49,701 bases of DNA from Candidatus Methylomirabilales bacterium. GTDB lineage: Bacteria; Methylomirabilota; Methylomirabilia; Methylomirabilales; CSP1-5. Location: assembly GCA_041599135.1 (NCBI GenBank), contig JBFHXD010000003.1, positions 1 to 49,701 of the forward strand, given 5' to 3'. A model generated the notes under the pieces. It did no database searches and was not told the origin of the DNA. It was given only the letters and a program-made list of their open reading frames with translations. The stretch's first letter is position 1. Every line of letters begins with the position of its first letter. This document shows, one piece after another, positions 6,704 through 46,845 of this stretch. The position numbers and the translations under genes are program-made.

Positions 6704-6726
6704 TTGAGGGTGCAGAGTTCACGATT

Positions 6727-6913
6727 CGATGACCGATCACCGATGACCGTGGACCGACTACAGACCGCCGTGGACGTTGACAGGATGAGTCCGCCCTTTT
6801 CGCAAACCGAGAAGTGGGATCCGCGACTCTGGACGTAAGTGGCGGCTCGTCAGTGGTTACTCCCTCGGTCGTCGGTCATCCGTCTTCGGTCGTCGCCGGA
6901 TGTCGGTCATCGT
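6727..6913. repeat. Inverted pair of heptamer tandem runs (CGATGAC-like / GTCATCG-like)
   Basis: CGATGAC CGATCAC CGATGAC... at 6727-6770; complementary GTCGTCG GTCATCC... at about 6866-6913; same family at 17912-17961. Confidence 0.7.
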
Positions 6914-6921
6914 CCCCTAAG

Positions 6922-6950
6922 TTGACACCTCTGGGACCCTTTGTTAAGTT
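6922..6950 (+). promoter_or_regulatory. Sigma70-type promoter upstream of yggS
   Basis: TTGACA-N17-TAAGTT with extended -10 TG. Confidence 0.6.
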
Positions 6951-6981
6951 ACCAAAGAAAGGAGGGTCTCGGGCGGGCTCG

Positions 6982-7671
6982 ATGACGATAAAGGAGCGTG
7001 TGGAAAGCATTCGGGAGCGGATCGCGGCGGCAGCCCTGAGCGTGGGTCGGGATCCCACCGAGGTGCTGGTGGTTGCCGTTGCGAAGACCTTTCCGGCGTC
7101 AGCGGTTGAAAAGGTCATCGCTGCCGGCATCAATAACATTGGAGAGAATCGCGTCCAAGAAGCCAGGGCGAAGATCGCTGCGATTGAGACCCCCTGTCAC
7201 TGGCACATGGTGGGGCACCTGCAGACAAATAAGGCTCGGCTCGCGGTAAGCCTTTTTGACTGGATCCAGTCGCTCGATTCGATAAAGCTTGCCCAAGAAC
7301 TGCACAAAGCGGGGTCTGGGCTGGGCAAGCGAGTGAGAACGTTAGTCGAGGTCAACCTCGGTCAGGAACCGAGCAAGACCGGGCTATACGAGACGGAACT
7401 CGTTCCCTTCCTCGAGCAGGCAGGGGCCCTGCCGGACCTGGGCATCGAGGGGTTGATGGCCATGCCCCCTTATGATCCAAATCCCGAGGCTGTCCGACCC
7501 TACTTTCGCCGTCTGCGCGAGCTTCGCGACGATGCTGCCTCGCGGTTTCCTCAGCTGACGCTCTCACATCTCTCTATGGGCATGAGCCATGATTTTGAGA
7601 TTGCCATCACGGAGGGAGCGACGATCGTGCGGGTTGGAACCGCCATCTTTGGCGAACGGCCAACCCGATAG
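6982..7671 (+). CDS. yggS: PLP homeostasis protein YggS/PROSC
   Basis: Start re-called at ATG 6982 (MTIKERV); VAVAKT, GENRVQE, WHMVGHLQTNK, LSMGMSHDF, VRVGTAIFG. Confidence 0.96.
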   Translation: MTIKERVESIRERIAAAALSVGRDPTEVLVVAVAKTFPASAVEKVIAAGINNIGENRVQEARAKIAAIETPCHWHMVGHLQTNKARLAVSLFDWIQSLDSIKLAQELHKAGSGLGKRVRTLVEVNLGQEPSKTGLYETELVPFLEQAGALPDLGIEGLMAMPPYDPNPEAVRPYFRRLRELRDDAASRFPQLTLSHLSMGMSHDFEIAITEGATIVRVGTAIFGERPTR

Positions 7672-7755
7672 CACTCAGCAGTCAGCAACCAGCTGTCAGC
7701 AAGAAAATGGAACAGGTTTTCTAAGGCTGATTGCTGACGGCTGATAGCTGACAGC
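7670..7755. repeat. Palindromic heptamer element (CAGCNNT)n ... (GCTGANN)n
   Basis: Left arm 7670-7700, right arm 7726-7755; related copies at 18982, 24384 and 49427. Confidence 0.8.
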
Positions 7756-7761
7756 TTCACC

Positions 7762-8073
7762 ATGCGGTTGGATCTTTTTCTCAAGACGTCTCGCTTGATC
7801 AAACGCCGAAGCCAAGCGAAGGCCCTGTGCGAGGCAGATCGGGTCCGCGTGAATGGACGGCCGGCGAAAGCGGGACAGCAGATTCGGCCGGGAAACCGAA
7901 TCGCCTTGGATCTGTACCGGGGTCAAGTGGTAGTCGAGGTCGAACAGGTCACATCGGGTATGAGGGGTCGGGGTGGATCCTCGGCCCGCTATAGAGTCGT
8001 GGCAGAGCAACAAACTGCTCGAGGGATGAGAGATCAGGGAGAGGAGGACAGTGATGCAGATTTTTATGGATAG
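7762..8073 (+). CDS. S4-domain RNA-binding protein (RqcP/YabO or Hsp15-like)
   Basis: MRLDLFLKTSRLIKRRSQAK..C..RVRVNGRPAKAG. Confidence 0.88.
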   Translation: MRLDLFLKTSRLIKRRSQAKALCEADRVRVNGRPAKAGQQIRPGNRIALDLYRGQVVVEVEQVTSGMRGRGGSSARYRVVAEQQTARGMRDQGEEDSDADFYG

Positions 8074-8719
8074 CGCCAATGTGAAGGCGATCCAGGATGC
8101 CGTGGCGCATGGCCTCATCGATGGGGTAACCACGAATCCGTCTCTGATCGCCAAAGAGGAGACGAAATTTCGGGAGGTGATTGAGGAGATCTGCCGGATC
8201 GTTCCCGGCCCGGTCAGCGTGGAAGTTGTGGGGACCACCTACGAGGAGATGATGGTTGAAGGCCGGGAAGTCGCCAAAATCGCTGACAATGTGGTCGTGA
8301 AGATCCCTATGCTCAAAGAAGGACTCCGGGCGGTTCGGGAGCTGACCCAGGACGGGATCCGGGTCAATGTGACGCTGGTTTTCTCGGCAGCGCAGGCCCT
8401 CTTGGCGGCCAAGGCCGGGGCGACCTATGTCAGCCCCTTTATTGGGCGCCTGGATGATCACGCCCACGTCGGCATGGATATTGTGCGCGATATCGTGGCC
8501 ATCTATGAAAATTACGCGCTTCCATCCCAAGTCTTGGTGGCCAGTGTTCGGACTCCTCTCCATTTCGTCGAGGCGGCGTTGTCCGGTGCACACGTGGTCA
8601 CCGTCCCCCCCGGAGTCCTGCAGCAGCTGTTGAAGCACCCCCTGACCGACGTGGGGCTTGAACGCTTCCTGGCTGACTGGCAAAAGGTCCCCCAAGGGAT
8701 CTTTGGCCCCCCTCGGTAA
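8054..8719 (+). CDS. tal: Transaldolase / fructose-6-phosphate aldolase (short type)
   Basis: IFMDSAN, GVTTNPSL, VVKIP (Schiff-base Lys), VNVTLVFS, YVSPFIGRLDD, HPLTD.GL. Confidence 0.95.
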   Translation: MQIFMDSANVKAIQDAVAHGLIDGVTTNPSLIAKEETKFREVIEEICRIVPGPVSVEVVGTTYEEMMVEGREVAKIADNVVVKIPMLKEGLRAVRELTQDGIRVNVTLVFSAAQALLAAKAGATYVSPFIGRLDDHAHVGMDIVRDIVAIYENYALPSQVLVASVRTPLHFVEAALSGAHVVTVPPGVLQQLLKHPLTDVGLERFLADWQKVPQGIFGPPR

Positions 8720-8781
8720 AACGGCATCCCGCAGAGGCTTCCCCTAAACTTGCTCCCCTACCCCCTATCCGCATTTTTTTC

Positions 8782-8810
8782 TTGACAACAATAAAACAAG
8801 ATTTTACATT
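8782..8810 (+). promoter_or_regulatory. Sigma70 promoter for the IclR/CoA-transferase unit, with an overlapping imperfect palindrome
   Basis: TTGACA-N17-TACATT; TAAAA-caaga-TTTTA at 8792-8806. Confidence 0.65.
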
Positions 8811-8946
8811 GTGGGGGCTCTCACACGGCACCGACTATCCATATCCGAGCAAGTCCTTTCGTGCATATAAGCCCGGTTGGTGTTTGCGGGTCGCCAGGAA
8901 GGGGACCCTTCGTAGAGCCCAATCCCGCGTAGGATAAAGGCCGAGG

Positions 8947-9759
8947 ATGGCTCATCGCCGCAAGCAAAAATCGGAATATATCGTCCAGTCAGTCGACCGG
9001 GCCTTAGACATACTCGAGGCGTTCAATTATCACGAGGAAGAGCTGGGAGTGACCGAGCTCAGCCAGAAGCTCGGGCTCCATAAAAACAACGTTTTCCGTT
9101 TGCTGGCCACCCTGGAGGTCCGGGGGTATATCGAGCAGGATAAGAAGACCGGGAACTACCGGTTGGGGATCAAGACCTTCGAGGTGGCCAACATATTCCT
9201 CCATCATTTGGGCCTGAGACGTCAGGCGCGGCCCATCTTGGAGGATCTGGCCGATCGGTGTGACGAGACGGCATATCTCGCGATCTTGGATGGCCCCGAG
9301 GTGGTGTACGTCTTGATGCACGAGACTTCACAGACGGTTCGTATTGTCCCCCGCCTGGGCCACCGTTTGCCCGCATACTGCACTGCCTCTGGCAAGATCC
9401 AGCTGGCCTTTGAGTCTCGCGACCATCTGGCCCAGATCTTCGAAGGCCATACGCTGAAGAAATATACGGGAAACACAATCGATAACTTTGAAAAGCTCCT
9501 CAACCATCTCAAAGAAGTGACTCGGCTCGGATACGCCGTTGACAACGAGGAGTTGGAGCAGGGAGTCCGTTGCGTCGCTGCACCGGTGAAAGATTACTCA
9601 CATCGGGTAGTAGCCGGCGTCGCGCTCTCGGGTCCGGTGCCGCGGTTCTCCATGGAGCGGATCGAGAAGGAGCTGGTTCCCCTCGTGAAGGACGCTGGGA
9701 TAAAGATTTCCCAACGTCTGGGATACGAACTCCATCCGGTTGGCCTCAAGGGGGAGTGA
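8947..9759 (+). CDS. IclR-family transcriptional regulator
   Basis: VQSVDRALDIL HTH; PAYCTASGK; GYAVDNEELEQGVRCVAAPV. Confidence 0.96.
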   Translation: MAHRRKQKSEYIVQSVDRALDILEAFNYHEEELGVTELSQKLGLHKNNVFRLLATLEVRGYIEQDKKTGNYRLGIKTFEVANIFLHHLGLRRQARPILEDLADRCDETAYLAILDGPEVVYVLMHETSQTVRIVPRLGHRLPAYCTASGKIQLAFESRDHLAQIFEGHTLKKYTGNTIDNFEKLLNHLKEVTRLGYAVDNEELEQGVRCVAAPVKDYSHRVVAGVALSGPVPRFSMERIEKELVPLVKDAGIKISQRLGYELHPVGLKGE

Positions 9760-9864
9760 ACAGAAGAAAGGAGGTGAGAGGCGAACACGGAGAGATGCTG
9801 TCGATGAATTCGGTGTTGATGGAAGCGGAGGCATCACAAGAACTTCTTGCAGGAGGAGGAGAGC

Positions 9865-11280
9865 ATGGCAGAGATAAAGAGCACTGACATTCCTGTGCTG
9901 CCGTGGCCTGCAGTACCCACGCCGACGCCCGATGAAGTTTATAAGGGCCTCAGCGAGGCAGCCCAGGAATACCCGAGATGGCTGGAAACCCAGGTCCACT
10001 GGCGGGACGTCGGGAAAAAGCCGGAGAAGCTGAACCGGCTTCGCGTGCTCGATGTGACCCAGAAGAGCATGGGCGGGCACTGGTGCACGTCCCTCTTCGC
10101 CGAGCATGGGGCCGACGTCATCATGGTCGAGCCCCCCGGTGGAGATCCGAGCCGGCGCTTGACCCCCTTTAACCGCCAGCAGTACATGTTCAAGGACAAC
10201 GTGACCGGCGAGGCGATGGGAGCGAAGTTCCTCCACGAGTGCCGGAACAAGTTCTCCATCACCCTCAATCTGGAAAGCGCCGAGGGCCGGGAGCTGCTCA
10301 AGAAGCTCGCGGTGGATGCGGATGTGCTCGTCGAGAACTACCCCCCCGGGCAGTTCGACGCGTGGGGGATCGGCTATCGGCAGCTGTCCGAGATCAACCC
10401 CCGCCTGGTGTACGGCTGGATCGGACAGCGGGGACAGTGGGGACCGCTCAAGGATCGGCCCTGGATGTACGACCCCGTGGGGCAGAACGCCTGTGGATTT
10501 ACGCATGGGACCGGCGCCCCGTCGGCCTTCGGGGGTCGGCCCACCCGTTCCGGCATGTGGGTTTGCGATTACGTTGGCGGGACCTGCCTGGCCATGGGGA
10601 TCATGGTGGCCCTGAATTACCGGGATCGGATCTCGGGTCGTGGCCAGTTCGTCGAGGCGACCGGCGCGGCCGGGATCATGCGGATCATCGACTATAACTG
10701 GGGCTGGCAGGGGATGGACGGCAGCATCCGGCCCCGCTTCGGCAACTGGGACCTGGCCATCAACATCTATGCCGTCAACCCCTGTAAGGACGGCCAGATC
10801 ATGGTCGGTGGCGGACACGATCGGCTCTGGTTCCGGATCTGGAAGACGGTGGGTAAGGACCGACCCGAACTCGAGCAGCACATCGTCGAGGATCCGGCGC
10901 TCAAGATCGTCGTGGATCGGCTCCCCTACTATGCTCAGGTCGAGACCTATACCACCTTTGCCGACTGGTTCAAGGATAACACCCGCCTCGAGGCCGAGCT
11001 CAAGCTGCAGGCCGAAGAGGTGGCCTCGGGCGGTGTGACATTTGCCGATGAGGTGGCGGAGTTCCCGCACTTCAAGTACCGGGGGCATGTGCTCCAGATC
11101 GACGACCTCTCATACGGCAAGGTGGTTTACAGCCCGCCGTCGCAGCTGGCCCAGAAGGCGCCCCCGCGGGTGAAGTGGCTTGGCCGGCCGACGGGCTATG
11201 ACAACGAAGAGATCTATCGCAAGATCTTCGGGTTCAAGAAGGACGACATCGATGCCCTCAAGAAGAAGGGGGTCATCTAA
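9865..11280 (+). CDS. Family III (CaiB/BaiF) CoA-transferase, subunit 1
   Basis: Start re-called at ATG 9865 (GGAGGAGG RBS); GADVIMVEPPGGD, RNKFSITLNL, ADVLVENYPPG, INPRLVY; Asp retained in WVCDYVGG. Confidence 0.92.
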   Translation: MAEIKSTDIPVLPWPAVPTPTPDEVYKGLSEAAQEYPRWLETQVHWRDVGKKPEKLNRLRVLDVTQKSMGGHWCTSLFAEHGADVIMVEPPGGDPSRRLTPFNRQQYMFKDNVTGEAMGAKFLHECRNKFSITLNLESAEGRELLKKLAVDADVLVENYPPGQFDAWGIGYRQLSEINPRLVYGWIGQRGQWGPLKDRPWMYDPVGQNACGFTHGTGAPSAFGGRPTRSGMWVCDYVGGTCLAMGIMVALNYRDRISGRGQFVEATGAAGIMRIIDYNWGWQGMDGSIRPRFGNWDLAINIYAVNPCKDGQIMVGGGHDRLWFRIWKTVGKDRPELEQHIVEDPALKIVVDRLPYYAQVETYTTFADWFKDNTRLEAELKLQAEEVASGGVTFADEVAEFPHFKYRGHVLQIDDLSYGKVVYSPPSQLAQKAPPRVKWLGRPTGYDNEEIYRKIFGFKKDDIDALKKKGVI

Positions 11281-11306
11281 ACTCCTGAGACATGGAGGTC
11301 TGCAGC

Positions 11307-12665
11307 ATGGCGATGAGCTTTGAAGAGTACTGTCGGAGCGTCTTCGACGTAAAGAAGATCTTCGAAAAGCCCGAGGCCTTCAAGGGGTATACGGCCATCT
11401 CCACCACCCAGTACATCCTCGGCCCCTCGTGCGCCAACTACTTCGCCGAGCTGGGGATGGAGACCATCAAGATCGAGCTGCCCCGCCGGGGCGAGCCGAT
11501 GCGGCACACGACCCCGTATAACGAGCCCTTCCTGTATCCCTTGTCCCGGTGGATGCCGGACAAGGGGACGGGTTTGGGCTTTTTCGGCGCCAACCACAAC
11601 GAGTACTTTCTCGCGGTGGACTTTCACAAGCCCGAAGGCGTAGAGATCGTTCATCGGATCCAGGCCAAGGCCGATGTCCAGTGCGAGAACTACCGGCCCG
11701 GCACCTTTGACCGGTGGGGGATCGGCTACCGCCAGGCCTCCAAGATCAACCCCCGCCTGGTGTACATCTGGATGGGCGGCTTTGGCGGCTGGGGGCCGGG
11801 GCGGGTCCGGGCGTCGTACGACATCCTGGGCCAGGCCCAGGGGGGAACGTTCTCCATCACCGGCTTCCCCGGCCCGGGGTCCGGTCATCCGGCCATCGGG
11901 CTCCCCTCCAAGCACACCATCTGGCTCGCCGACTACTGGGGGGGCATGATGGGCTGCTTTGCCGGTCTCGCCGCGCTCTGGTGGCGGGATAACGTTTCGG
12001 GGACCGGCGAGTTCATCGAGTACAGCCAGGTCCACGGCGCGACCCGGATCATCGAAGGAACCATCCCTCTGTTCGGCCGCTACGGGGTCGTGGCTCAGCG
12101 GTGGGGGAACTGGGATCGAGAGCTTTGCGTCCACGGGATCGTCCAGTGCGGGAAGCCGTCGTACCCGGACTCCAAGATCATGCTCGAGCTGGAACCGGGA
12201 CAGATCCTGATCTCGGCCCCCGAGGACAGCGAGTTCGCCAAGCTCTGCCAGACCATCCCGACCCTCAAGGGGCTGGCGTCGAAGTACGCCAAGTACAACG
12301 ATCGCGTTCAGCCCGCGGCCCAGTCCGAGATCTATACCGCCATGGAAGAGTGGGCCAAGGACAAGACCAAAGAGGAAGTCTGGCAGATCATGGAGAAGGC
12401 CGACATCAACAGCCAGCCGGTCTGGAGCAACAAGGAATGCGCCCAGCAGGAGCACTTCCACCTGCGGGATGAGCTGCACTGGCTGGATGACCCGTACTTC
12501 GGCGACGTCCTGAGCCAGGGGTTGCCGTACCATCTGTCCGAGACGCCGGCCCGGCACCGGTGGGTCTTCAAGCCGGTCGGCGCGGATAACGAGTACATCC
12601 TGCAGAAGTACTGCAACTACGGCTTGGACGAGATCCGCGAGCTGGAGAAGAACGAGATCATCTAA
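11307..12665 (+). CDS. Family III (CaiB/BaiF) CoA-transferase, subunit 2
   Basis: Start likely ATG 11307 (GGAGGT RBS); IKIELPRRGEPMR, ADVQCENYRPG, INPRLVY, YDILGQA; Asp retained in WLADYWGG. Confidence 0.92.
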   Translation: MAMSFEEYCRSVFDVKKIFEKPEAFKGYTAISTTQYILGPSCANYFAELGMETIKIELPRRGEPMRHTTPYNEPFLYPLSRWMPDKGTGLGFFGANHNEYFLAVDFHKPEGVEIVHRIQAKADVQCENYRPGTFDRWGIGYRQASKINPRLVYIWMGGFGGWGPGRVRASYDILGQAQGGTFSITGFPGPGSGHPAIGLPSKHTIWLADYWGGMMGCFAGLAALWWRDNVSGTGEFIEYSQVHGATRIIEGTIPLFGRYGVVAQRWGNWDRELCVHGIVQCGKPSYPDSKIMLELEPGQILISAPEDSEFAKLCQTIPTLKGLASKYAKYNDRVQPAAQSEIYTAMEEWAKDKTKEEVWQIMEKADINSQPVWSNKECAQQEHFHLRDELHWLDDPYFGDVLSQGLPYHLSETPARHRWVFKPVGADNEYILQKYCNYGLDEIRELEKNEII

Positions 12666-12680
12666 ATGGTCAGTCGATGG

Positions 12681-12711
12681 CCAGGGGGGCCGCCGAGGGC
12701 GGCTTCCCTGG
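12681..12711 (+). other. Intergenic GC-rich hairpin without U-tract
   Basis: CCAGGGGGGCCGCC-GAG-GGCGGCTTCCCTGG. Confidence 0.55.
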
Positions 12712-12731
12712 GCTGACAAGGAGGTGTCTGC

Positions 12732-13133
12732 ATGGCAGACTTCAAGCATTGTTCGCTGATCATGGAGTGCGGCAAGTGCTCGATTCTCAACTACCTGGAT
12801 CCCTTCACCTTCTGGTTCTTCGAGGGGAAGGTGAAGTGCGCCGGCTGCGACGCCATCTGGGCGATCAAGATCGACAACGGGGTCCGGGTCTCGGGCCCGA
12901 CCGAGGGCAAGCCGCCCCATGATAAACTCCCCGGCTACGCGCAGACGAAAGACTACAAGACCAAGATCACCGACACGACCAAGGTCAACCCGCCGGTCAT
13001 GGCCCGGGCCGACTTTGTCGGCAAGCCGATCCCCATCACCAAGAGCATCCGGGGCAAGCCGGTGAGCGGCGCGCCGCTCAAGGCCGAAGACCTGGTCGGC
13101 AGCCGGCCGCGTTTTATCAAGGAGGGGAAGTAG
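12732..13133 (+). CDS. Hypothetical Zn-ribbon protein (CxxC...CxxC)
   Basis: AAGGAGGT RBS; CGKC and CAGC pairs; codon style matches the neighbouring genes. Confidence 0.8.
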   Translation: MADFKHCSLIMECGKCSILNYLDPFTFWFFEGKVKCAGCDAIWAIKIDNGVRVSGPTEGKPPHDKLPGYAQTKDYKTKITDTTKVNPPVMARADFVGKPIPITKSIRGKPVSGAPLKAEDLVGSRPRFIKEGK

Positions 13134-13143
13134 GAGCGACTAG

Positions 13144-13593
13144 ATGCCCAAGCCGAAAAAGAAAGCGGCGGGGCGGGGTCGACGTCCTGCACGGGGCAAG
13201 ACACCGAAAGCGAAAGCGCGCCGACCCAAGCCGAAGGCGAAGGCCAAGAGGCCGAAGAAGCCGGCGCCAGCCCGAAAGGGCAAAGCTGTCGCTCCCAAGC
13301 AGAAAAAGAAGGTCCGGGCTCCGGCCAAGCCGGCGCGCCGGGCCCGCAAGCCCGCGGCTCTGAAACCCGCGGCGCCCAAGACCGTTGCCCCGAAACCCGC
13401 GGCCCCCAGACCCGCTCCTGTCGAGCGGAAGGAGGAGACAAGGATGGCCGGACAGAGTTGCCCAATCCACAACAGCCCTGACTGCTTCAAGCCGGCGCTC
13501 GATGCCTTCGTTCAGAAGGCATACGACGGCTACTGCACCAAGATCGACTGGCCCTACTGGAGGATCATCCCTAAGGGATGGAAGCCCAAGTAG
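13144..13593 (+). CDS. Lys/Ala/Pro/Arg-rich histone-like region fused to a 49-aa Cys/His domain (internal start at 13444 possible)
   Basis: KPKAKAK and KPAA repeats; AGGAG before ATG 13144 and AAGGAGGAG before in-frame ATG 13444. Confidence 0.65.
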   Translation: MPKPKKKAAGRGRRPARGKTPKAKARRPKPKAKAKRPKKPAPARKGKAVAPKQKKKVRAPAKPARRARKPAALKPAAPKTVAPKPAAPRPAPVERKEETRMAGQSCPIHNSPDCFKPALDAFVQKAYDGYCTKIDWPYWRIIPKGWKPK

Positions 13594-13622
13594 CGCTCCG
13601 AATGGGCTGATCGACACGTAGG

Positions 13623-13661
13623 ATAAGCCACGGCTGTGACGAGCAGCCGTGGCTTATTTTT
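13623..13661 (+). terminator. Intrinsic terminator closing the CoA-transferase operon
   Basis: 14-bp stem ATAAGCCACGGCTG / CAGCCGTGGCTTAT, 7-nt loop, T-tract. Confidence 0.85.
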
Positions 13662-13675
13662 GCCGCGAGACAACC

Positions 13676-13748
13676 TTGACCGAACAAAAGGGGCATGGTA
13701 GGGTGGCCGTGCTTTCAGGGGATATCGGACATATAATAGACATATAAT
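13676..13748 (+). promoter_or_regulatory. Putative promoter plus 11-bp-period direct repeat operator
   Basis: TTGACC-N17-TAGGGT; GACATATAAT x2 at 13728 and 13739. Confidence 0.45.
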
Positions 13749-13771
13749 GGTTGAGGAAAGGGGGAGAAGCG

Positions 13772-14146
13772 ATGAAAGTCGAATTTTATTACAGCAGTAA
13801 GGACGAGCCGGCGAAGCAGTACCACTGTGACAACCAGAAGGCCCTGGAGCTTGCCAAGCAGTTGCAGGGGAAGGGAGTCAACATCAAGATCCAAGACTGT
13901 GGAGAGCAGCCAGCCAGCTTCATGACGTACAACGCAGCCGTAACCGGGCCCAGCGCCGCCAAGCGTGCGGTCTTTGGGACCAAGGGGGCATTAGAAGAGG
14001 AGTTCGGGAAAGCGGTCCCGGCGCTGCTCGTCTTTGAGAAGGAAGGGGACCGGTACCCCACCGAGGTCTTTCCCCGCATGGATAAGGAACAAAACAAACT
14101 GATCGGCCCCGAGGAGGCCCTGCAGAATCTGCTGAGCCAGGCCTAA
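13772..14146 (+). CDS. Hypothetical protein (possibly thioredoxin-like fold)
   Basis: Start re-called at ATG 13772 (GGGGAG RBS); KVEFYYS...VPALLVF pattern; 17 nt upstream of the ligase. Confidence 0.7.
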   Translation: MKVEFYYSSKDEPAKQYHCDNQKALELAKQLQGKGVNIKIQDCGEQPASFMTYNAAVTGPSAAKRAVFGTKGALEEEFGKAVPALLVFEKEGDRYPTEVFPRMDKEQNKLIGPEEALQNLLSQA

Positions 14147-14163
14147 AAGGAGGAGGAGGCGAC

Positions 14164-15840
14164 ATGGGAAAAATCCCGGAAGGATATCTCCCCCCGAAGG
14201 AGCTCTGGCCAAACCGACTCTACACGCTCCCAGAATACCAGGCCTACCCGCAAAAATTTAACAACACCGAGGAGTTGCTGGACAAGCAGGTGGCCGCGGG
14301 GAAAGGCGATCGGCCCGCCATCCTCTTTGAGGACAGAAAGATTCCCTATAAGGCGCTGCTCGGCATGGTCAACAAGCTCGGCAGCAGCCTGAAAGCCTTG
14401 GGCATCGAGGAGGCGGACCGGGTGGCGCTTCGCGCCCCGAATATCCCTCCTGCGCTGGTGAGCAATTTCGCGGTCCTGAAGATTGGTGCGATCTTCCTGC
14501 CGACCTCCGGCCTCTTCTCGCGGGCCGAGATCGCCCACGTCTTTAACAATGCCGAGGTCAAGGCGGTGGTCGTGGCGGCCGCGATGCTCGAGGAGCTGGA
14601 GAAGGCCAAACCCGATCTCAAGACCTTGCAGCATGTCATTATCATCGGCGGCACGCCCGAGCAACAGGCCGAGTACAAGCAGAAAGGCTATCTCCTGTAT
14701 CAGGAGCTTGTGGACGGCGGGAAGCCGGAGTGTGACCCGGTGCGCCGTGATCGCATGGATATCTCGGTCCTGCTCTACACCTCGGGAACCACCGGCCTGC
14801 CCAAGGGGACAGTCCATTTCAATGAAGAGGCGCTCATTATCCCCGACGGCTTTGGCAAGTACTGCTGGAATGTCACCGAGAACGATGTGATCCTGAGCGG
14901 TGCCCCCATCGCCATGGCCGCCGGATACTCGGCCGTGGCGTCGATCCCATACCGATTCGGGGCCTCGGTCTCCATCTTCCCCCGCTTCACCCCGGAGGGG
15001 TTGTTCGAGCAGATCCAGAACCACAAAGTGACACTCCTCTCGGCCCTGCCGACGGCGTATCGCAAGATGCACCAGGTCGCGGATGCCGAAAAGAAGTACG
15101 ACCTCAGTTCCCTCCGGATCTGTACCGGTGGGGGCGAGTCACTCACCGCGAAAACATACCACGATTGGAAGGCCAAGTTCGGCCAGGAGATCTTCGAGGG
15201 GCTGGGAACCACCGAGATGATGTTCGTCTTCATCTCGTCCGCGGCTACCAAGAAGGTCAAGCCCGGCTCGATCGGACCAGCTGTTCCAGGATATGAAGTC
15301 AAGGTCATCAACGAGGAGGGGAAGGACTGCAAGCCGGGAGAGACCGGACAACTCGTGGCGCAGGGCCCGACAGGGACCGTGTACTGGCGCGATAATGAAA
15401 AGCAGCGATCCGTCGTCAAGGATGGCTGGTGCCGGGCCGGCGATATGGTCACCATGGACGAGGATGGCTATATCTGGTTCCTGTCCCGCGAGGACGACCT
15501 GATCAAATCTTCCGGCTACCGAATCGGACCGGAGGAGATCGAGGATGTCCTCGTCACCCACGCGTCGGTGGCAGATGCGGGTGTTGTCGGGGTCGCAGAC
15601 CCGGTGATGGGCCAAAAGACCAAGGCCTACGTCCAGCTCAGAGAGGGCAAGCAGGGTTCGGAGGATCTGAAGCAAGAGCTGGTCGAATTCTGCCGGGGCA
15701 AGGTCGCAGTCTACAAGCTCCCACGGGACGTGGAGTTTATTGACAAGATGCCGCGGGCACCGGGCCCGGGGGGTCCCGGAACGGGCAAGCTCCTGCGCCG
15801 CGTTCTGAGGCAGCGCGAGGCAGAGCAAGCCAAGGCGTAA
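14164..15840 (+). CDS. AMP-forming acyl/aryl-CoA ligase, benzoate/2-aminobenzoate-CoA ligase-like
   Basis: N-terminal LPPKELWP; YTSGTTGLPKG P-loop; GLGTTE; GD..MDEDGY; R.DDLIKSSGYRIGPEEIE; C-terminal TGKLLR. Confidence 0.9.
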   Translation: MGKIPEGYLPPKELWPNRLYTLPEYQAYPQKFNNTEELLDKQVAAGKGDRPAILFEDRKIPYKALLGMVNKLGSSLKALGIEEADRVALRAPNIPPALVSNFAVLKIGAIFLPTSGLFSRAEIAHVFNNAEVKAVVVAAAMLEELEKAKPDLKTLQHVIIIGGTPEQQAEYKQKGYLLYQELVDGGKPECDPVRRDRMDISVLLYTSGTTGLPKGTVHFNEEALIIPDGFGKYCWNVTENDVILSGAPIAMAAGYSAVASIPYRFGASVSIFPRFTPEGLFEQIQNHKVTLLSALPTAYRKMHQVADAEKKYDLSSLRICTGGGESLTAKTYHDWKAKFGQEIFEGLGTTEMMFVFISSAATKKVKPGSIGPAVPGYEVKVINEEGKDCKPGETGQLVAQGPTGTVYWRDNEKQRSVVKDGWCRAGDMVTMDEDGYIWFLSREDDLIKSSGYRIGPEEIEDVLVTHASVADAGVVGVADPVMGQKTKAYVQLREGKQGSEDLKQELVEFCRGKVAVYKLPRDVEFIDKMPRAPGPGGPGTGKLLRRVLRQREAEQAKA

Positions 15841-15867
15841 GAGAGACAATCGAGGAGCAAAACCAGT

Positions 15868-15897
15868 GAGGGGACTCTGCGGGGTCCCCTCTTTTGT
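15868..15897 (+). terminator. Intrinsic terminator after the CoA ligase
   Basis: GAGGGGAC...GTCCCCTC followed by TTTTGTT. Confidence 0.8.
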
Positions 15898-16066: not shown

Positions 16067-16124
16067 TTGACAGCTTTGGGTAGGGTACTGTTTAATCTGG
16101 AGAACTGCGTTCTATATGGAGAAC
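16067..16124 (+). promoter_or_regulatory. Promoter and palindromic operator of the second IclR gene
   Basis: TTGACA-N18-TTTAAT; GTTCTATATGGAGAAC at 16109-16124. Confidence 0.55.
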
Positions 16125-16901
16125 ACACAACTAATGAAGGAAGATCGCGTCCCAGCGGTGGAGAGTGCAGTCCGGATCCTCAAGTTCCTGAAAGACCGGA
16201 ACCATCGGCCCTGGGGGGTTTCGGAGCTCAGCCGGTCCCTTCAGCTCAATAAAAGCACGTGCTTCAACATCCTCAAGGCCCTCACCGGTCATGAGCTGGT
16301 CGCCTACGATGAAGGAACCAAAAAGTACGCCCTGGGATCCGCCCTGATCGAACTCGGGGGTGCCGCGTCGGCTGCCACCAGTCGTGCTGAGGTAGCAAAG
16401 CCTTTCCTCCAAGATCTCTTTGAAGAGTTAAAGCTCACCTGTCTCTTGGGACAGCGATTTCAGGATAGGGTGATTATTGTGGATCGCGTGGAGGCTCAGG
16501 ATGCCTTCCGGATTACGATTCCGATCGGACAGGCGCTCCCCCTCGGTCAGGGGGCCCTGGGACGGTGCTTCCTTGCCTATCTTCCCGAGGCGGATCTCGA
16601 CCACCTCCGGGCCCTCGGGGTCCTGGAGCAGGCTGACCCCCGCAAAGGGTACCACCAGATTAAGACGGCCTTAGCCAAAGTCCGGCGCCAGGGGTTTGCG
16701 GAGAGCTTTGGAGAGGTCGCCAAGGGGGTCAACGCTGTGGCCACACCTATTTTCGATCACCGGGGCGATGTACCGCTGGCCCTCGGGGTCATTGGCTTTG
16801 CCTCTCTGCTTACACCCCGTCGGCTAGCCCGCTGCGGACGAAAACTCCGTGAGGTTTCTGGGCTGATTACCCGTATCATGGGGGGTCAGGCCAGGCCGTG
16901 A
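16116..16901 (+). CDS. IclR-family transcriptional regulator
   Basis: VPAVESAVRIL, GVSELSRSLQLNKSTCFNIL HTH; GALGRCFLAY; GVNAVATPIFD (start could be ATG 16134). Confidence 0.94.
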   Translation: MENTQLMKEDRVPAVESAVRILKFLKDRNHRPWGVSELSRSLQLNKSTCFNILKALTGHELVAYDEGTKKYALGSALIELGGAASAATSRAEVAKPFLQDLFEELKLTCLLGQRFQDRVIIVDRVEAQDAFRITIPIGQALPLGQGALGRCFLAYLPEADLDHLRALGVLEQADPRKGYHQIKTALAKVRRQGFAESFGEVAKGVNAVATPIFDHRGDVPLALGVIGFASLLTPRRLARCGRKLREVSGLITRIMGGQARP

Positions 16902-16909
16902 ATTTCCCC

Positions 16910-16966
16910 TTGACGAATAGCAGTCGAGGTGGTATCCTCCCGAGGATTTCGTTCTATTGGTCGAAC
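16910..16966 (+). promoter_or_regulatory. Promoter and operator of the U32 operon
   Basis: TTGACG-N17-TATCCT with extended -10 TG; GTTCTATTGGTCGAAC at 16951-16966. Confidence 0.6.
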
Positions 16967-16979
16967 GACGAGGGCTGTC

Positions 16980-17903
16980 ATGTGGGTTAGCAGCGGTGGA
17001 ATACTCCTGGCTCCCGCGGGGAGCGTCCAGGCCGCCAAGGCCAGCTTAGAGGCAGGAGCGGATGCCATCTATGTTGGGCTGAAGGGATGGAGTCGAGGGG
17101 GTGGACGAGGCGAGCTCACCCCTGTTCAGCTCCGGAAGGTCCTGGCCCTCGCTCGCCAAAGGGATGCAGCCGTGCAGCTGGCCCTCAACACCATCCCCCG
17201 CGGGCGTGAGATCGATTACCTCCTCGAGCGCCTCCCGGAACTCAAAGGATGGGGCATCACGGGGGTCATCCTGAACGACCCTGGCATCCTAGCATTCATT
17301 CACCGGTGTTATCCCGAGCTGCCCCTCACCGCGAGCATTGGGTGTGGTGCCCTCAATGTGGATGATGTCGCCCTGCTAGAGGAGATCGGCGCGACCTGCA
17401 TCGTCCTGCCGGGAACGGTACATCCTGCAGAGATTGCCGAGATGCGACCGTATGTCAAGGCTCAGATCGAGGTCATGATCCACATGGTGGATGAGTTTCA
17501 CCAGCTCGGGAAGTGCTGGATGCCGAGCTATTATCGGACGAACCGCTCTCCGATACCAGAGATGCCGGCCGACGGTGAGCGTCTCACGGGATCGATCAAG
17601 CGAGGCGGGTCGGGAGTCTGCTTCAAGGTCTGCCAGCATCCCTGGGGCCTCTATCTGAATGGACAAAAAAAGGAGGAGCGCATGCTGCCCGCCCGACAGG
17701 TGAGTCGGGCTCCAGAGGTCGGCGCCTACCTCGACGCGGGGGTGGACGTGATCAAACTTCAGGGGAGGAGTTTGCCGCCTGAGCTGGTCTTCCCCCTGGT
17801 TCGGCGATTCCGCGTGGCCATTGATCAGGTTAGGGAGGGACGGCAGCTCTTGGAGGTGGCACAATTTGAATTGCCGGCCTCGTGGGTCGTGGTGGGACGA
17901 TGA
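16980..17903 (+). CDS. Peptidase U32-family Fe-S protein, UbiU/TrhP-like (paralogue 1)
   Basis: Start re-called at ATG 16980; LLAPAGS, GADAIYVG, LGKCW, GVCFKVC, IKLQGR. Confidence 0.88.
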   Translation: MWVSSGGILLAPAGSVQAAKASLEAGADAIYVGLKGWSRGGGRGELTPVQLRKVLALARQRDAAVQLALNTIPRGREIDYLLERLPELKGWGITGVILNDPGILAFIHRCYPELPLTASIGCGALNVDDVALLEEIGATCIVLPGTVHPAEIAEMRPYVKAQIEVMIHMVDEFHQLGKCWMPSYYRTNRSPIPEMPADGERLTGSIKRGGSGVCFKVCQHPWGLYLNGQKKEERMLPARQVSRAPEVGAYLDAGVDVIKLQGRSLPPELVFPLVRRFRVAIDQVREGRQLLEVAQFELPASWVVVGR

Positions 17904-17911
17904 AACAGGGT

Positions 17912-17961
17912 CGATGACCGACTACTGACGACCGATGACCGCTGACCGATCACCGACGACC
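17912..17961 (+). repeat. Heptamer tandem run (CGATGAC-like)
   Basis: CGATGAC CGACTAC TGACGAC CGATGAC CGCTGAC CGATCAC CGACGAC. Confidence 0.75.
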
Positions 17962-18077
17962 AGGAACCAAGAGCTCGGAGCGCAAGCCAGATGTCGCCTG
18001 CCCCGGAAGGAACCCCTTCCTCGCTCTTGGCGACTTCGGAGGTTCAACTTCGTACCTTAAGCCGTGAAGGGTGAATC

Positions 18078-19028
18078 ATGGATCGTCAAATCTTCGAGTT
18101 GAATACGGCAATCTCCAACATGAAAGATCTGATGGCCTCGGATTTGAGTCCGTATGATGCGGTCTACCTGGGGAATCTCTACTGCCGGGATTACGAGGCC
18201 AACTTTTTGGAGAAGCTGGACGATCTCCGGGCGGGGATCCGCCACTGCCGAGAGGCAGGTTCCAAGGTATATCTCACGACCTATGCGGCCCCCCGCAACT
18301 ATTTTCTCCCGCAAATCCGCAAGGCAATCGCCGTGGCAGCAGAGGAGGGGGTGGACGCCGTTGAAGCGCACAACCTCGGGGTCGTGCGGATCCTCCGGAA
18401 CGAGTTTCCCGCACTTTCGATCCACATCGGCGGGTTTGCGAATGTCTATACCGATACAGGGGCATTGGTCCTCCGAGACTACGGGGGGACCCGGGTGACT
18501 CCCAACTACGAACTCTCTCTGGAGGAGATCGAAGGGATGGCCCACAGCACTACTCTTCCCCTTGAGATTTTGGTCCACGGCAAGATGCCTTTAGGGATCT
18601 CCGACTATTGCTTCCTGCTGGAGTATGAAAAGGCGTGGGGGATGCAGTGTCCGGATCTCTGTCAGCAGGACTTGTTTCTCCGTCAAGGGGATTGGGCGAT
18701 GAAGTCAACGGGGAAGGGAATCCTGAGCGGCCGGGATGTCTGTATGCTCGAGTATTTGCCCCGTCTGGTGGCGGGTGGGTTTCGCTTCTTCAGAATCGAG
18801 GCAGTTTCGGAGGATCCTGCTTACCGCCGTGACATTGGAATGGTTTACAAGGAAGCCCTTGAACACGCCTTTAGCGGTGCATACGAGATTCACGAGGCGT
18901 GGTGGGAAAAAATCCAGACCCACGCAAAGGTGGGGCTGTGTAATGGCTTTTATTTCGGTCAATCGGGACAGCTTTACATCGGCAGTCAGCCGCCAGCTGT
19001 CAGCCATCAGCTAAGAGTCATAAGCTGA
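18078..19028 (+). CDS. Peptidase U32-family Fe-S protein, UbiV-like
   Basis: VYLGNLYC near the N-terminus; HGKMPLGISDYC-X12-C-X3-C, the UbiV-type Cys spacing; FRIE. Confidence 0.85.
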   Translation: MDRQIFELNTAISNMKDLMASDLSPYDAVYLGNLYCRDYEANFLEKLDDLRAGIRHCREAGSKVYLTTYAAPRNYFLPQIRKAIAVAAEEGVDAVEAHNLGVVRILRNEFPALSIHIGGFANVYTDTGALVLRDYGGTRVTPNYELSLEEIEGMAHSTTLPLEILVHGKMPLGISDYCFLLEYEKAWGMQCPDLCQQDLFLRQGDWAMKSTGKGILSGRDVCMLEYLPRLVAGGFRFFRIEAVSEDPAYRRDIGMVYKEALEHAFSGAYEIHEAWWEKIQTHAKVGLCNGFYFGQSGQLYIGSQPPAVSHQLRVIS

Positions 19029-19054
19029 CCGCTGATAGCCGACTGCTGACAGCT
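18982..19054. repeat. Palindromic heptamer element (CAGCNNT/GCTGANN family)
   Basis: GCAGTCAGCCGCCAGCTGTCAGCCATCAGCT ... AGCTGACCGCTGATAGCCGACTGCTGACAGCT; overlaps the 3' end of the UbiV-like gene. Confidence 0.8.
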
Positions 19055-19074
19055 TGATCAGAAGGGAGGAGACG

Positions 19075-20043
19075 ATGGTCGAACTACTCGTGCCGGCGGG
19101 CAGCATTGAAATGGTCAAGGCGGCCGTGGACAACGGGGCGAATGCCCTGTATGTAGGCCCGAAGGGGTGGAGCCGGAGGCGCGATGCCTACGAACTCGAC
19201 GATGAAACCCTTCGAGAAGCGGTCCGGATCGCCCATGCGCGTGGGGTGAAGGTTCGCGCAGCCATCAATACCCATCCCACGTCTTCGGAGCTCTCCACGC
19301 TGCTCAAACGGATGGAGACTTGGGTGGGCAATGGCATTGACGGAGTGATCCTGAGCGATGTGGGGGTGATGGCGGCGGTCCACCGCGCCTTTCCCGCCCT
19401 GACCATCCACGCCAGCATCGGGGCCAACATCCTGAACGACGAGGATATCCGCTGGTATCGCGAGATCGGGGTCAGTCAGGTGGTCGCCGATACCAAGCTC
19501 TCGCTCAAAGAGCTCAGGGCGCGCCGCGAGATCGAGGTGGGGGTCGAGGTATTGATCCACGCCAACAAGTGCTATACCTATCTGGGCAAGTGCTGGATGT
19601 CACCTTACCATCGCCTCGAGCGGAGCCAAGATGAAACCGGCAAAGACCAGTTCAAGGGGAGTCCGAATCGCGGCGGCCTGGATTACCGTGTCTGTCTCGA
19701 GGCCTGGAGCCTCTGGCGAGGAAATCAGGACTTATGGGCGGACCGGGTAAGCCTCAAGAATGATGCCTTCTTCCTCCTCGACGACATTCCCCACCTGATC
19801 GACATGGGGGTCCACACCCTCAAGGTCCAGGGGCGGGAGTACGCCCTCGACCTCATCGGCCGGATGGTGAAATTCTACCGGGACCTCGTCGATGCTTACA
19901 CGGCGGATCCTCAGGCGTTTGACCTGCGTCTCTGGACAGTGCGACTGGCCGAGATTCAGGCTCAGCGGGACCTGGAGCGGGCCAAGGGGACGCTTCATCT
20001 CTTTGAGGAAGCCAGGCAGCCGGTCCATGGGTGCGTCCGATAA
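19075..20043 (+). CDS. Peptidase U32-family Fe-S protein, UbiU/TrhP-like (paralogue 2)
   Basis: Start re-called at ATG 19075 (GGAGGAG RBS); ELLVPAGS, GANALYVG, C-X6-C (CYTYLGKC), NRGGLDYRVC, LKVQGR. Confidence 0.9.
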   Translation: MVELLVPAGSIEMVKAAVDNGANALYVGPKGWSRRRDAYELDDETLREAVRIAHARGVKVRAAINTHPTSSELSTLLKRMETWVGNGIDGVILSDVGVMAAVHRAFPALTIHASIGANILNDEDIRWYREIGVSQVVADTKLSLKELRARREIEVGVEVLIHANKCYTYLGKCWMSPYHRLERSQDETGKDQFKGSPNRGGLDYRVCLEAWSLWRGNQDLWADRVSLKNDAFFLLDDIPHLIDMGVHTLKVQGREYALDLIGRMVKFYRDLVDAYTADPQAFDLRLWTVRLAEIQAQRDLERAKGTLHLFEEARQPVHGCVR

Positions 20044-20047
20044 ATAC

Positions 20048-20085
20048 GGTACAGAAGGTACAGAGGAGTGTAGAGGGTGTAGGAG
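20048..20085 (+). repeat. Nonamer repeat run (GGTACAGAA-like)
   Basis: GGTACAGAA GGTACAGAG GAGTGTAGAG GGTGTAGGAG. Confidence 0.55.
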
Positions 20086-20094
20086 GGGATAGGG

Positions 20095-20337
20095 GTGTGC
20101 AAGCGGTGCGGCAACACGGACGCCGGCCAGTTTGAGCGGCTGGATGGCTTCGAGCGGATCGCGCTAGCCGATGACCCCGCGGATCCCAACTGCGGTCATT
20201 ATTACGTGGAGACCGTCTACGTCATGCGTTGCCCCGCATGTGATCATCGGCAGGAGGCGGTCACCAAGCGCTGGCCGTTTCAGACACTACGCGAGGCCGC
20301 AAAAGAGATGGAGAGCCATATCATCGGCAAAGGGTAG
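20095..20337 (+). CDS. Small Zn-finger protein (CxxC...CxxC)
   Basis: CKRC and CPAC pairs plus a CGH; follows the U32 genes. Confidence 0.72.
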   Translation: MCKRCGNTDAGQFERLDGFERIALADDPADPNCGHYYVETVYVMRCPACDHRQEAVTKRWPFQTLREAAKEMESHIIGKG

Positions 20338-20340
20338 GCG

Positions 20341-20403
20341 CAGGCAGGTACAGCAGGTACAGCAGGTACAGCAGGTACAGAGAGGTCAGAAGGTGCAGAG
20401 GTG
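20341..20403 (+). repeat. Nonamer tandem repeat CAGGTACAG x4
   Basis: CAGGTACAG CAGGTACAG CAGGTACAG CAGGTACAG, then degenerate copies. Confidence 0.8.
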
Positions 20404-20404
20404 T

Positions 20405-20884
20405 TTAGCGCCGCCATTTGGTGAGGCGGCGGGCGGTCTTGTCTCCCCACAGGAGGGTGAAGAGCGCGTGACGGGCGGTCTTGCGAACCCGCTCGTAGTG
20501 CCGACAAACGCCGTTGGCAAAGTGGGTCCGCGTTCCGTTCTCGCGGCAGAGGAGGACGCGGCCGGAGACCGCATTGTGGCGGAGGCCCAAAGGAGCGACG
20601 TTGAGCACGGTGACATCCACCGGGAGTTGGAGCGCCCGGCTCAGATCTTTCGCGAGGGTCGCCTGGTATTGCAGAGAGGCTCCTCGGGTAAGGCGACCAT
20701 TATTGAGGTAGACCGCGACGTCGATGTCGCGGAATCTGTTTCCGTTGATGAAAGAGCCGTGGAGATAGGCAAAGAGGACCTCCTCGCGGAACGCCAGAAG
20801 GTCATGGAGGGCAGAGGTGACGCGAGCCTTCTCACGAGATGTCAATCGATACCTGCGGTACACGGCTTCGCACCCCAAAATCAA
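20405..20884 (-). CDS. Minimal nucleotidyltransferase (MntA/polbeta-like)
   Basis: FAYLHGSF...RDIDVAVY (GS..DxD) and PVDV.VLN.AP; true start may be GTG 20863. Confidence 0.85.
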   Translation of the reverse strand: MILGCEAVYRRYRLTSREKARVTSALHDLLAFREEVLFAYLHGSFINGNRFRDIDVAVYLNNGRLTRGASLQYQATLAKDLSRALQLPVDVTVLNVAPLGLRHNAVSGRVLLCRENGTRTHFANGVCRHYERVRKTARHALFTLLWGDKTARRLTKWRR

Positions 20885-39137: not shown

Positions 39138-39148
39138 CTGGAGGTGCC

Positions 39149-39637: not shown

Positions 39638-39903
39638 TGCAGACATTCTTCTTTGCTGTCCTGCTGACCATCGTGATCCTCGCGCTGGTCTACCTCTTCC
39701 GTATGGTTTTCGGGCCGACCCTGTTTGACCGGCTCCTCGGCCTGAATGGGATCTCGAACAAGGCCATCCTGATCCTGGTTCTCATCGGGACGCTGTATGA
39801 GCGCCTGGACATCTTTGTGGACATTTCCGTGGGGTATGCGCTCCTGAACCTTGTTGGGGCCGTGGCCGTCGCCAAGTTTCTGGAGCTGAAAGGGATGCCG
39901 TAA
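39637..39903 (+). CDS. mrpF: Mrp/Mnh antiporter subunit F
   Basis: RMVFGPTLFDR..., three TM helices. Confidence 0.93.
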   Translation: MQTFFFAVLLTIVILALVYLFRMVFGPTLFDRLLGLNGISNKAILILVLIGTLYERLDIFVDISVGYALLNLVGAVAVAKFLELKGMP

Positions 39904-40736: not shown

Positions 40737-40748
40737 CCGGGGGGCCCG

Positions 40749-43019: not shown

Positions 43020-43026
43020 GAGGCTC

Positions 43027-46814: not shown

Positions 46815-46845
46815 AGCTCGCCGCTGGCTGGGAACCCTGACCGAG

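Follow-up and report, generated by a model that had tools for sequence, protein, structure and literature searches.

The U32 proteins form the only known hydroxylation system that takes its oxygen from an organic molecule, the donor being prephenate (PMC10990095). The closest described example is the UbiU-UbiV pair of Escherichia coli (YhbU/YhbV), which functions in O2-independent, prephenate-dependent ubiquinone hydroxylation and is a heterodimer with one [4Fe-4S] cluster in each subunit, bound by C169, C176, C193 and C232 in UbiU and by C39, C180, C193 and C197 in UbiV, the latter shown to be ligands by Pelosi et al. (10.1101/587956). The tRNA hydroxylation factor TrhP (E. coli YegQ) has a counterpart in Bacillus subtilis, which needs two U32 proteins, the tandem paralogues TrhP1 and TrhP2 (YrrO/YrrN), to make 5-hydroxyuridine (ho5U; PMC6599085), and RlhA, which acts on 23S ribosomal RNA (rRNA), is recognized by a U32 domain joined to DUF3656 (PMC5727448). 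In the mechanism proposed for these proteins, a two-electron oxidation of the aromatic substrate is followed by decarboxylation of prephenate, which delivers hydroxide and leaves phenylpyruvate, with the clusters carrying the electrons (PMC10990095); IspH-like binding of the substrate to a cluster has also been put forward as a possible mechanism (PMC11574389). Here we describe three adjacent U32 genes in a 49,701-nucleotide stretch of DNA from a Candidatus Methylomirabilales bacterium (GenBank assembly GCA_041599135.1, contig JBFHXD010000003.1, positions 1 to 49,701; this whole stretch is referred to below as the window). The genes, P1, Mid and P2, encode a UbiU-like, a UbiV-like and a second UbiU-like protein, in which the two UbiU-like copies have each replaced a different cluster-binding Cys by a carboxylate residue. 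From these features we infer, with a modest preference over the alternatives, a complex, its cluster ligation, its chemistry and its substrate class: the trio would be an accessory multi-subunit U32 Fe-S enzyme, likely to catalyse O2-independent hydroxylation of a CoA-activated, probably aromatic, acid.

The trio resembles UbiU-UbiV in that adjacent genes encode U32 proteins of two kinds, with P1 and P2 being like UbiU in length and motif order and Mid sharing the UbiV ligand layout, an N-terminal Cys followed by C-X12-C-X3-C. It differs in having three genes rather than two, in that each UbiU-like copy is short of one of the four Cys, in having CoA-enzyme neighbours, and in its hosts, which are NC10 bacteria and Acidobacteriota. 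Ubiquinone is not known from outside Pseudomonadota. There was no UbiT (SCP2) or other Ubi-type gene among the neighbours scanned, a scan that was not aimed at such genes. As in B. subtilis TrhP1/TrhP2, U32 paralogues stand in tandem, and TrhP is the best NCBIfam match of P2, but the trio is without the TrhP C-terminal domain and without tRNA-modification neighbours, and is missing from near-complete relatives. Our literature searches turned up no account of a U32 enzyme with three subunits, of U32 proteins that use Asp or Glu as ligands, or of the trio family in NC10 or Acidobacteriota.

All three genes are on the forward strand. P1 (16980..17903, within an open reading frame, ORF, 16929/16980-17903; 307 amino acids), Mid (18078..19028; 316 amino acids) and P2 (19054..20043; 329 amino acids from TTG 19054) exceed the gathering cut-off of 22.4 bits for PF01136 (Peptidase U32), with scores of 90.9, 123.1 and 122.5 bits, respectively. 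Because a promoter-like site is located at 16910-16938, the ATG at 16980 is favoured as the start of P1, whereas for P2 the ATG at 19075, preceded by GGGAGGAG, is a more likely start than TTG 19054; residues are numbered here from ATG 16980 in P1 and from TTG 19054 in P2. PF01136 is the sole Pfam entry for Mid and P2, and P1 has one further match, to PEP_mutase, that is below the cut-off (22.3 versus 31.5 bits). The combination of U32 and DUF3656 domains that marks RlhA is absent, with no DUF3656 found by Pfam in P1, Mid or P2. None of the NCBIfam equivalog models is reached: UbiU (NF047963; cut-off 440 bits) gives 90.6 bits for P1 and 136.3 for P2, UbiV (NF047965; cut-off 275) gives 71.9 bits for Mid, with residues 25-297 of 316 aligned, and TrhP (NF011996; cut-off 534) gives 74.3 bits for Mid and 142.9 for P2, the best score of P2. 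The match of P2 to the TrhP model is confined to positions 4-184 of 449, and the C-terminal part of TrhP was not found in P2 with this model. Judged by these cut-offs, none of the three is a UbiU, UbiV or TrhP orthologue.

The cysteines of Mid, C36-X141-C178-X12-C191-X3-C195, are invariant in a 37-row alignment and align with E. coli UbiV C39, C180, C193 and C197, with identical spacing, in an L-INS-i alignment that took in UbiU, UbiV, TrhP and RlhA from the annotated E. coli K-12 record. P1 has the motifs EFHQLGKC (residues 172-179, 17493..17516), with Glu172 and Cys179, and CFKVC (residues 214-218, 17619..17633), with Cys214 and Cys218, which correspond to canonical Cys3 and Cys4. P2 has CYTYLGKC (residues 173-180, 19570..19593), with Cys173 and Cys180, and DYRVC (residues 210-214, 19681..19695), with Asp210 and Cys214. 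P1 and P2 are homologous over their whole length, with 34% identity, and both the L-INS-i alignment and a comparison of profiles built from 45 P1-type and 41 P2-type sequences (hhalign probability 100) pair Glu172 of P1 with Cys173 of P2, which is canonical Cys1, and Cys214 of P1 with Asp210 of P2, which is canonical Cys3. The ligand pattern, C-X6-C-Xn-C-X3-C in the canonical case, is E-C-C-C in P1 and C-C-D-C in P2, and the four Cys of UbiU are present in neither, Glu being at the first position in P1 and Asp at the third in P2. A plain MAFFT run did not align the CX3C of P1 and P2 with Cys3 and Cys4 of TrhP and RlhA, and the Cys3/Cys4 assignment rests on L-INS-i and hhalign, against that run. 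Cys2 and Cys3 are separated in P1 and P2 by a loop of about 30-35 residues, compared with 15 in TrhP and RlhA. With this placement, the UbiU-like/UbiV-like/UbiU-like order, the four UbiV-type Cys of the middle protein and the reciprocal Cys-to-carboxylate substitutions, all proposed in the first-pass annotation of this DNA, made from its letters alone, are borne out.

To follow these residues across relatives, genomes were scanned at the species level (one genome per species) with a Mid-type protein alignment. The scan gave 131 relatives, and of the best 80 loci, which were kept, 71 are of the window's type (type A) and nine are of a second type (type B, below). Type-A loci carry the labels NC10/Methylomirabilota, many Acidobacteriota (Terriglobales, Acidobacteriaceae, Thermoanaerobaculia, Sulfotelmatobacter) and, twice, Rokubacteria; single metagenome-assembled genomes (MAGs) labelled Thermoplasmata, Patescibacteria and Acidithiobacillales also have one, although these labels may include binning errors. 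Counted over ORFs of at least 200 amino acids in the best 80 loci, Glu172 is present in 61 of 62 P1 orthologues, the remaining one having Gln, and C179, C214 and C218 are present in all 62. In the P2 orthologues, defined by >50% identity, C173, C180, Asp210 and C214 are each present in 56 of 56. The first-pass annotation had made its proposal depend on conservation of the two substitutions, and both are kept in two phyla, to an extent that is far beyond chance. A regular expression applied to the 120 listed homologues closest to P1 gave Glu in 108, Gln in three and no match in nine. The source names of the closest homologues put the host in NC10/Methylomirabilales. E-C-C-C or D-C-C-C is common among representatives at 50% clustering, and a carboxylate at Cys1 is, on the evidence of these alignments, a clade-wide trait. 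Cys1 is also the most variable ligand position in the family, with P, N, Q, H, S, T, G or K in relatives. Three more P2-like matches have Cys at the third position: a TrhP-like bystander in a type-B locus and two Rokubacteria copies. The latter belong to a variant trio in two Rokubacteria MAGs (L089 and L101, about 6800-10060), in which P1 keeps Glu at Cys1 and the third protein, 38% identical to P2, has all four Cys (C-x6-C ... C-Y-R-P-C), and which provides a natural control for the Asp substitution.

The first-pass annotation had also asked whether other Cys residues might fill the vacated sites. For P2 conservation excludes this, as no further Cys is conserved in the 56 orthologues, and three Cys plus Asp is the economical reading of its ligation. 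For P1 the answer is less favourable. A fourth conserved Cys, C122, is present in the motif ASIGCG (SIGCG, 17334..17348) in 60 of 62 orthologues, and it may be a relocated cluster ligand or an active-site Cys. In 17 reference rows plus 48 representatives of 250-370 amino acids from the 150 best matches, the C122 column is occupied by Cys in 14 of the 20 rows that have Glu at Cys1, in five of the nine that have Asp there and in five of the 16 that have Cys there, RlhA being among the last. C122 is, by these counts, enriched where Cys1 has been lost, yet neither necessary nor exclusive. In an AlphaFold2 (AF2) model of P1, strand 116-118 is closely followed by C122 and strand 162-172 ends with Glu172, positions that place both on the C-terminal face of the barrel. 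The barrels are confident in the AF2 models of P1 and P2, and the cluster loops have a predicted local distance difference test (pLDDT) score <50 (residues 175-193 in P1). A relocated Cys ligand would be a real alternative to Glu172, because the fourth ligand wanders within the family: UbiV uses an upstream Cys, and the type-B proteins have a Cys three residues before Cys2. Solved structures offer little guidance. A search of the Protein Data Bank (PDB) with the P2 sequence gave no match, a search with a P2 profile gave only 5d88 (E 0.0071, N-terminal barrel), and Foldseek returned generic TIM barrels and 5d88 alone, with no solved Fe-S U32 structure found in the PDB searches.

[4Fe-4S] clusters with one non-Cys ligand, the arrangement that three Cys and a carboxylate at the ligand positions of P1 and P2 would give, are known from IspG (Glu), Pyrococcus ferredoxin (Asp) and DPOR (Asp), and the cluster of IspH has an open site. 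These four proteins have no sequence or fold relation to the U32 trio family, for which the ligation is deduced from alignment only.

The three genes behave as a unit. P1, Mid and P2 are present in this order on one strand in all 58 type-A loci with enough flanking DNA; in the other 13 of the 71 the contig ends inside Mid, or <1 kb beyond it, on the side of the missing gene, and no type-A locus with room for the trio lacked any member. P1 was matched in 33 of 41 sampled relatives and a P2 orthologue (E <=1e-100) in 31 of 151 sampled genomes of the phylum, almost all in the window's order, tallies that include the unpublished genomes G006 and/or G021, although nothing claimed here depends on those two by themselves. 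One large family, f9, has two of those P2 orthologues, and four of 94 genomes at the looser E of 1e-60. An exhaustive search of representatives gave only 35 clusters at E <=1e-30, and a metagenome scan with a Glu-type relative from Chloroflexota (P0123) returned only unrelated U32 genes (~23-34% identity) and a few very short matches. In the genome that contains the window (G000; 2.69 Mb, 94% complete) the trio genes are the only U32 genes. There is no U32 gene in three near-complete genomes of the same phylum, G037 (98% complete, seven contigs), G029 (94%) and G047 (100%), and in the genus of G037 P1 was matched in four of eight genomes. Since near-complete relatives are without any U32 gene, the trio is accessory rather than housekeeping, and the U32 family is dispensable within the phylum. 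A candidate Mid-P2 fusion in G017 was rejected, as the long open frame proved to be out-of-frame GC-rich sequence.

DNA near-identical to 16100-20400 of the window is present in marine, sediment, tidal-flat and hydrothermal-vent metagenomes (runs X1-X20). In three metatranscriptome-labelled runs, contigs span P1, Mid, P2 and the small gene of relatives that are 90-99% identical, and one such contig of 1427 nt takes in the end of Mid and all of P2 and reaches into the small gene; DNA may be present in these samples, so that the contigs are no proof of expression.

A quick maximum-likelihood tree of 72 rows, with SH-aLRT (Shimodaira-Hasegawa-like approximate likelihood ratio test) support only, separates the trio family from UbiU, TrhP and RlhA (support 97). 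A wider Glu-type group (93) includes the P1 clade (99), and the sister group (86) of the P2 Asp clade (99) is an all-Cys clade that contains the Rokubacteria copies. These placements suggest that the Asp of P2 arose from Cys, and that the Glu has an earlier origin and a broader distribution.

The type-B proteins form a clade of their own (100). Their cluster, as in L019 (G036:C1:2020000-2039999), 6296-15868, and also in L022, L024, L029 and L102-L110 (for example L110, 5547-14594), has the order HisC-like aminotransferase, U32, UbiV-like U32, U32, NMT1/THI5-like binding protein, U32, and a PPDK_N/PEP-utilizer (RPH/PigC-like) phosphotransferase of 850-990 amino acids. Its three UbiU-like proteins are without Cys1 and have the extra Cys three residues before Cys2 (C-P-G-[KR]-C). 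It is found in Methylomirabilis-type genomes and in the Proteobacteria Aromatoleum tolulyticum ATCC 51758, Georgfuchsia, Sideroxydans, Motiliproteus and Neptunomonas; the Aromatoleum copy is accompanied by separate TrhP-, RlhA- and UbiUV-like genes. As speculation, the aminotransferase could recycle phenylpyruvate. A described U32 subfamily, U32#6 (PepU32#6), has as its reference D5MIQ1_9BACT, which we take to be a Methylomirabilis oxyfera protein. Its cysteines were reported to be only partly conserved (Pelosi et al., 10.1101/587956), on the basis of a U32 tree by Kimura et al. 2017 (PMC5727448); the passages on U32#6 in Kimura 2017 and Pelosi 2019 give no function, subunit structure or paralogue-specific ligand pattern. 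Compared by description and Cys pattern only, the trio family is probably U32#6, because pooled P1-, P2- and type-B-like paralogues would give such a mixed Cys pattern.

Directly after P2, a small Cys-rich ORF of 80 amino acids (20095..20337, + strand) encodes a zinc-ribbon- or rubredoxin-like protein, with weak Pfam matches, below the cut-off, to Zn_ribbon_8 (E 0.0063) and RUBY_RBDX (E 0.0069). Homologues directly follow P2 in 10 further distinct loci, none labelled Acidobacteriota (tblastn), and conserve the pattern C-x2-C ... LADDPADPNCGH (C-G-H) ... C-x2-C-x-H. The small zinc-finger partner that was initially proposed is therefore real as an ORF with a maintained Cys/His pattern, but it is not a general part of the system, and a rubredoxin-like carrier is equally plausible; it appears to be an optional partner confined to NC10-type loci and is possibly an electron carrier.

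The gene neighbourhood provides the clues to a substrate. Directly upstream of P1 is an IclR-family regulator (16116..16901, + strand; IclR_C, HTH_IclR), a gene that is beside the trio in nine of the 71 type-A loci and that, from its position, is probably the regulator of the trio in this genome. It is preceded by an AMP-forming acyl/aryl-CoA ligase (14164..15840, + strand; AMP-binding domains), which 15 of the 71 loci have at a distance of up to 8 kb from the trio and which is followed here by a terminator-like hairpin at 15868-15891. The nearest solved relatives of the ligase are anthranilate-CoA ligase 4wv3 (256 bits), acetyl-CoA synthetase 9g79 (254 bits) and benzoate-CoA ligase 2v7b (240 bits). 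Further upstream, also on the + strand, are two family III CoA-transferases (9847..11280 and 11292..12665; CoA_transf_3), preceded by a second IclR gene (8947..9759), and three small proteins (12732..13133, 13144..13593 and 13751..14146) that match no Pfam or NCBIfam family. In 23 of the 71 type-A loci, in NC10 and in Acidobacteriota, the CoA-transferase pair is no more than 8 kb from the trio, and the CoA-transferase/small-protein/ligase module accompanies the trio in other NC10 families and, in another gene order, in Acidobacteriota. In the Acidobacteriota genome G041, P2 is followed by an MFS transporter on the opposite strand and then by CoA-transferase 1, CoA-transferase 2, the small proteins and the ligase. 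Also within 8 kb of the trio are an amidohydrolase-2 homologue (23 of 71), an ABM-domain protein (20), an FlK-like acyl-CoA thioesterase (nine), an MFS transporter (four) and an FNT channel (one), with the ABM, amidohydrolase-2 and thioesterase genes being neighbours of the trio in Acidobacteriota. Amidohydrolase-2 enzymes include non-oxidative decarboxylases of hydroxy-aromatic acids. Other Acidobacteriota loci have unrelated flanks (MreBCD, CorA, deacetylases), and the neighbour counts are not independent, as many loci with CoA genes are from close kin (Acidobacteriaceae).

The three small proteins always follow the CoA-transferase pair. The first, of 133 amino acids, has two C-x2-C pairs; the second is rich in Lys, Ala and Pro at the N-terminus and ends in a conserved region of 55 amino acids that contains Cys. 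For the third, of 124-131 amino acids, the sole lead in a protein atlas is a glutaredoxin-like cluster at a score (0.88) too weak to use, the others being unnamed clusters.

Taken together, these observations are consistent with an enzyme in which Mid is a UbiV-like subunit with an ordinary four-Cys [4Fe-4S] cluster and would serve in electron transfer, and P1 and P2 are UbiU-like subunits that would be catalytic or face the substrate. The cluster of P2 would most likely be bound through three Cys and Asp210, and that of P1 through C179, C214, C218 and either Glu172 or Cys122. The carboxylate-held iron of the P2 cluster, and perhaps of the P1 cluster, could adjust the redox potential or free a coordination site. 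If it works like UbiU-UbiV, TrhP and RlhA, the reaction would most likely be an O2-independent, probably prephenate-dependent, hydroxylation, and the neighbouring genes point to an organic, probably aromatic, acid as its CoA thioester as the substrate. A pair of paralogues that have each replaced a different cluster ligand would be a natural probe of which ligand positions can open. Nature also offers three controls, namely the sister clade, which has Cys as its third ligand, the type-B proteins, in which the first Cys is displaced, and UbiV, in which it lies upstream. Were the substrate a CoA-activated aromatic acid, U32 chemistry would extend from the modification of cofactors and RNA to carbon catabolism in NC10 and in Acidobacteriota, a dominant soil phylum.

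Several points weigh against this assignment. Hydroxylase activity in vitro has, according to PMC10990095, been shown for no U32 protein, and PMC10990095 and PMC11574389 describe no in-vitro activity, structure or cluster role as established for U32 proteins. The Cys122 of P1 may stand in for the missing Cys1, a part that the N-terminal Cys plays in UbiV, and P1 would then have an ordinary four-Cys cluster. With regard to the substrate, CoA-transferases are absent within 8 kb in 48 of the 71 type-A loci, the kinship noted above makes the positive counts overstate their independence, and in the window both the terminator-like hairpin and the IclR gene separate the ligase from the trio. Pfam detected no chorismate mutase in 56 small ORFs upstream of the trio in eight Acidobacteriota loci. 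G000 and three of the four Acidobacteriota genomes checked have no U32 set besides the trio, and TrhO (PF17773) was not found in any of 10 genomes checked, which leaves some room for an RNA substrate. Finally, the subunits could be combined differently, with results that the present data fit equally well.

A bolder version of the multi-subunit enzyme, to which we attach only tentative belief, would place the trio in a U32 enzyme class of its own. P1, Mid and P2 would form a heterotrimer that holds three [4Fe-4S] clusters, and in two of these a labile carboxylate ligand (Asp210 in P2, Glu172 in P1) would make the cluster site-differentiated, so that the unique iron would bind the substrate or prephenate directly, by an inner-sphere mechanism like that of IspG/IspH. 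Such an enzyme would hydroxylate aryl-CoA esters without O2 or molybdenum in soil and sediment Acidobacteriota and NC10, and the four-U32 cluster known from Aromatoleum and further Proteobacteria would represent another branch of the class.

The different combination is that P1-Mid and P2-Mid form two alternative heterodimers, which would catalyse successive steps or act at different positions of a single substrate, in the way that three hydroxylations are attributed to UbiU-UbiV. The sole characterised architecture is the 1:1 UbiU-UbiV heterodimer (10.1101/587956), P1 and P2, being homologous throughout, may share one surface of Mid, and the related type-B cluster has three UbiU-like genes and one UbiV-like gene. 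The two arrangements fit equally well because the co-occurrence of the three genes in 58 of 58 loci is compatible with both and the difference is one of stoichiometry only; we nevertheless consider separate heterodimers unlikely.

A housekeeping role in RNA modification is less probable again. The trio would then be the NC10 and Acidobacteriota counterpart of TrhP (ho5U34 in tRNA) or RlhA (5-hydroxycytidine, ho5C2501, in 23S rRNA), with its subunits split as in B. subtilis TrhP1/TrhP2, the precedent for a two-subunit TrhP (PMC6599085). It is because the trio is the only U32 set and TrhO was not found that an RNA substrate retains this small probability, and TrhP is also the best NCBIfam match of P2. 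That match is, however, far below its cut-off and limited to the first part of the model, with neither the TrhP C-terminal part nor DUF3656 found. For the pathway to uridine 5-oxyacetic acid (cmo5U), CmoB (PF08003) gave partial matches to the methyltransferase core only. Near-complete relatives manage without any U32 gene, and the genes that recur beside the trio encode transporters, IclR regulators and CoA enzymes rather than functions in RNA modification.

It is also doubtful, and slightly more so, that one UbiU-like copy is a degenerate scaffold, non-catalytic or cluster-poor (with no cluster or a [3Fe-4S] cluster), in which the Glu or Asp has a structural or acid-base role. Catalytically dead paralogue subunits are common in heteromeric enzymes, and Cys1 is the ligand position that varies most among relatives, but invariance of the three remaining Cys in both P1 and P2, with the replacing residue fixed as a carboxylate, would be unexpected for a decayed site. 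That the proteins are true peptidases or collagenases of the PrtC type, the original U32 annotation that survives in database names such as 'putative protease' and 'U32 family peptidase', is very improbable given that the Fe-S ligand motifs are conserved, that the tree puts the trio family beside, not inside, any named group, and that the characterised U32 members are hydroxylation factors (PMC11574389, PMC10990095).

Two further features of the window lie outside the proposed system. A Polbeta/NTP_transf_2 nucleotidyltransferase gene (20405-20884, - strand) adjoins the trio, and a gene of the same kind is located by the type-B cluster of G036 (L019, 14380-14814); its position beside U32 clusters may be a coincidence or reflect a mobile toxin-antitoxin-like element. 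The region 36060-48161 encodes DabA (1025 amino acids, 910.9 bits), the proton-pumping antiporter-type subunits MnhE, Oxidored_q2 and three Proton_antipo_M proteins, and after these an SbtA-like bicarbonate transporter and a P-II-domain protein, and is probably an inorganic-carbon uptake region.

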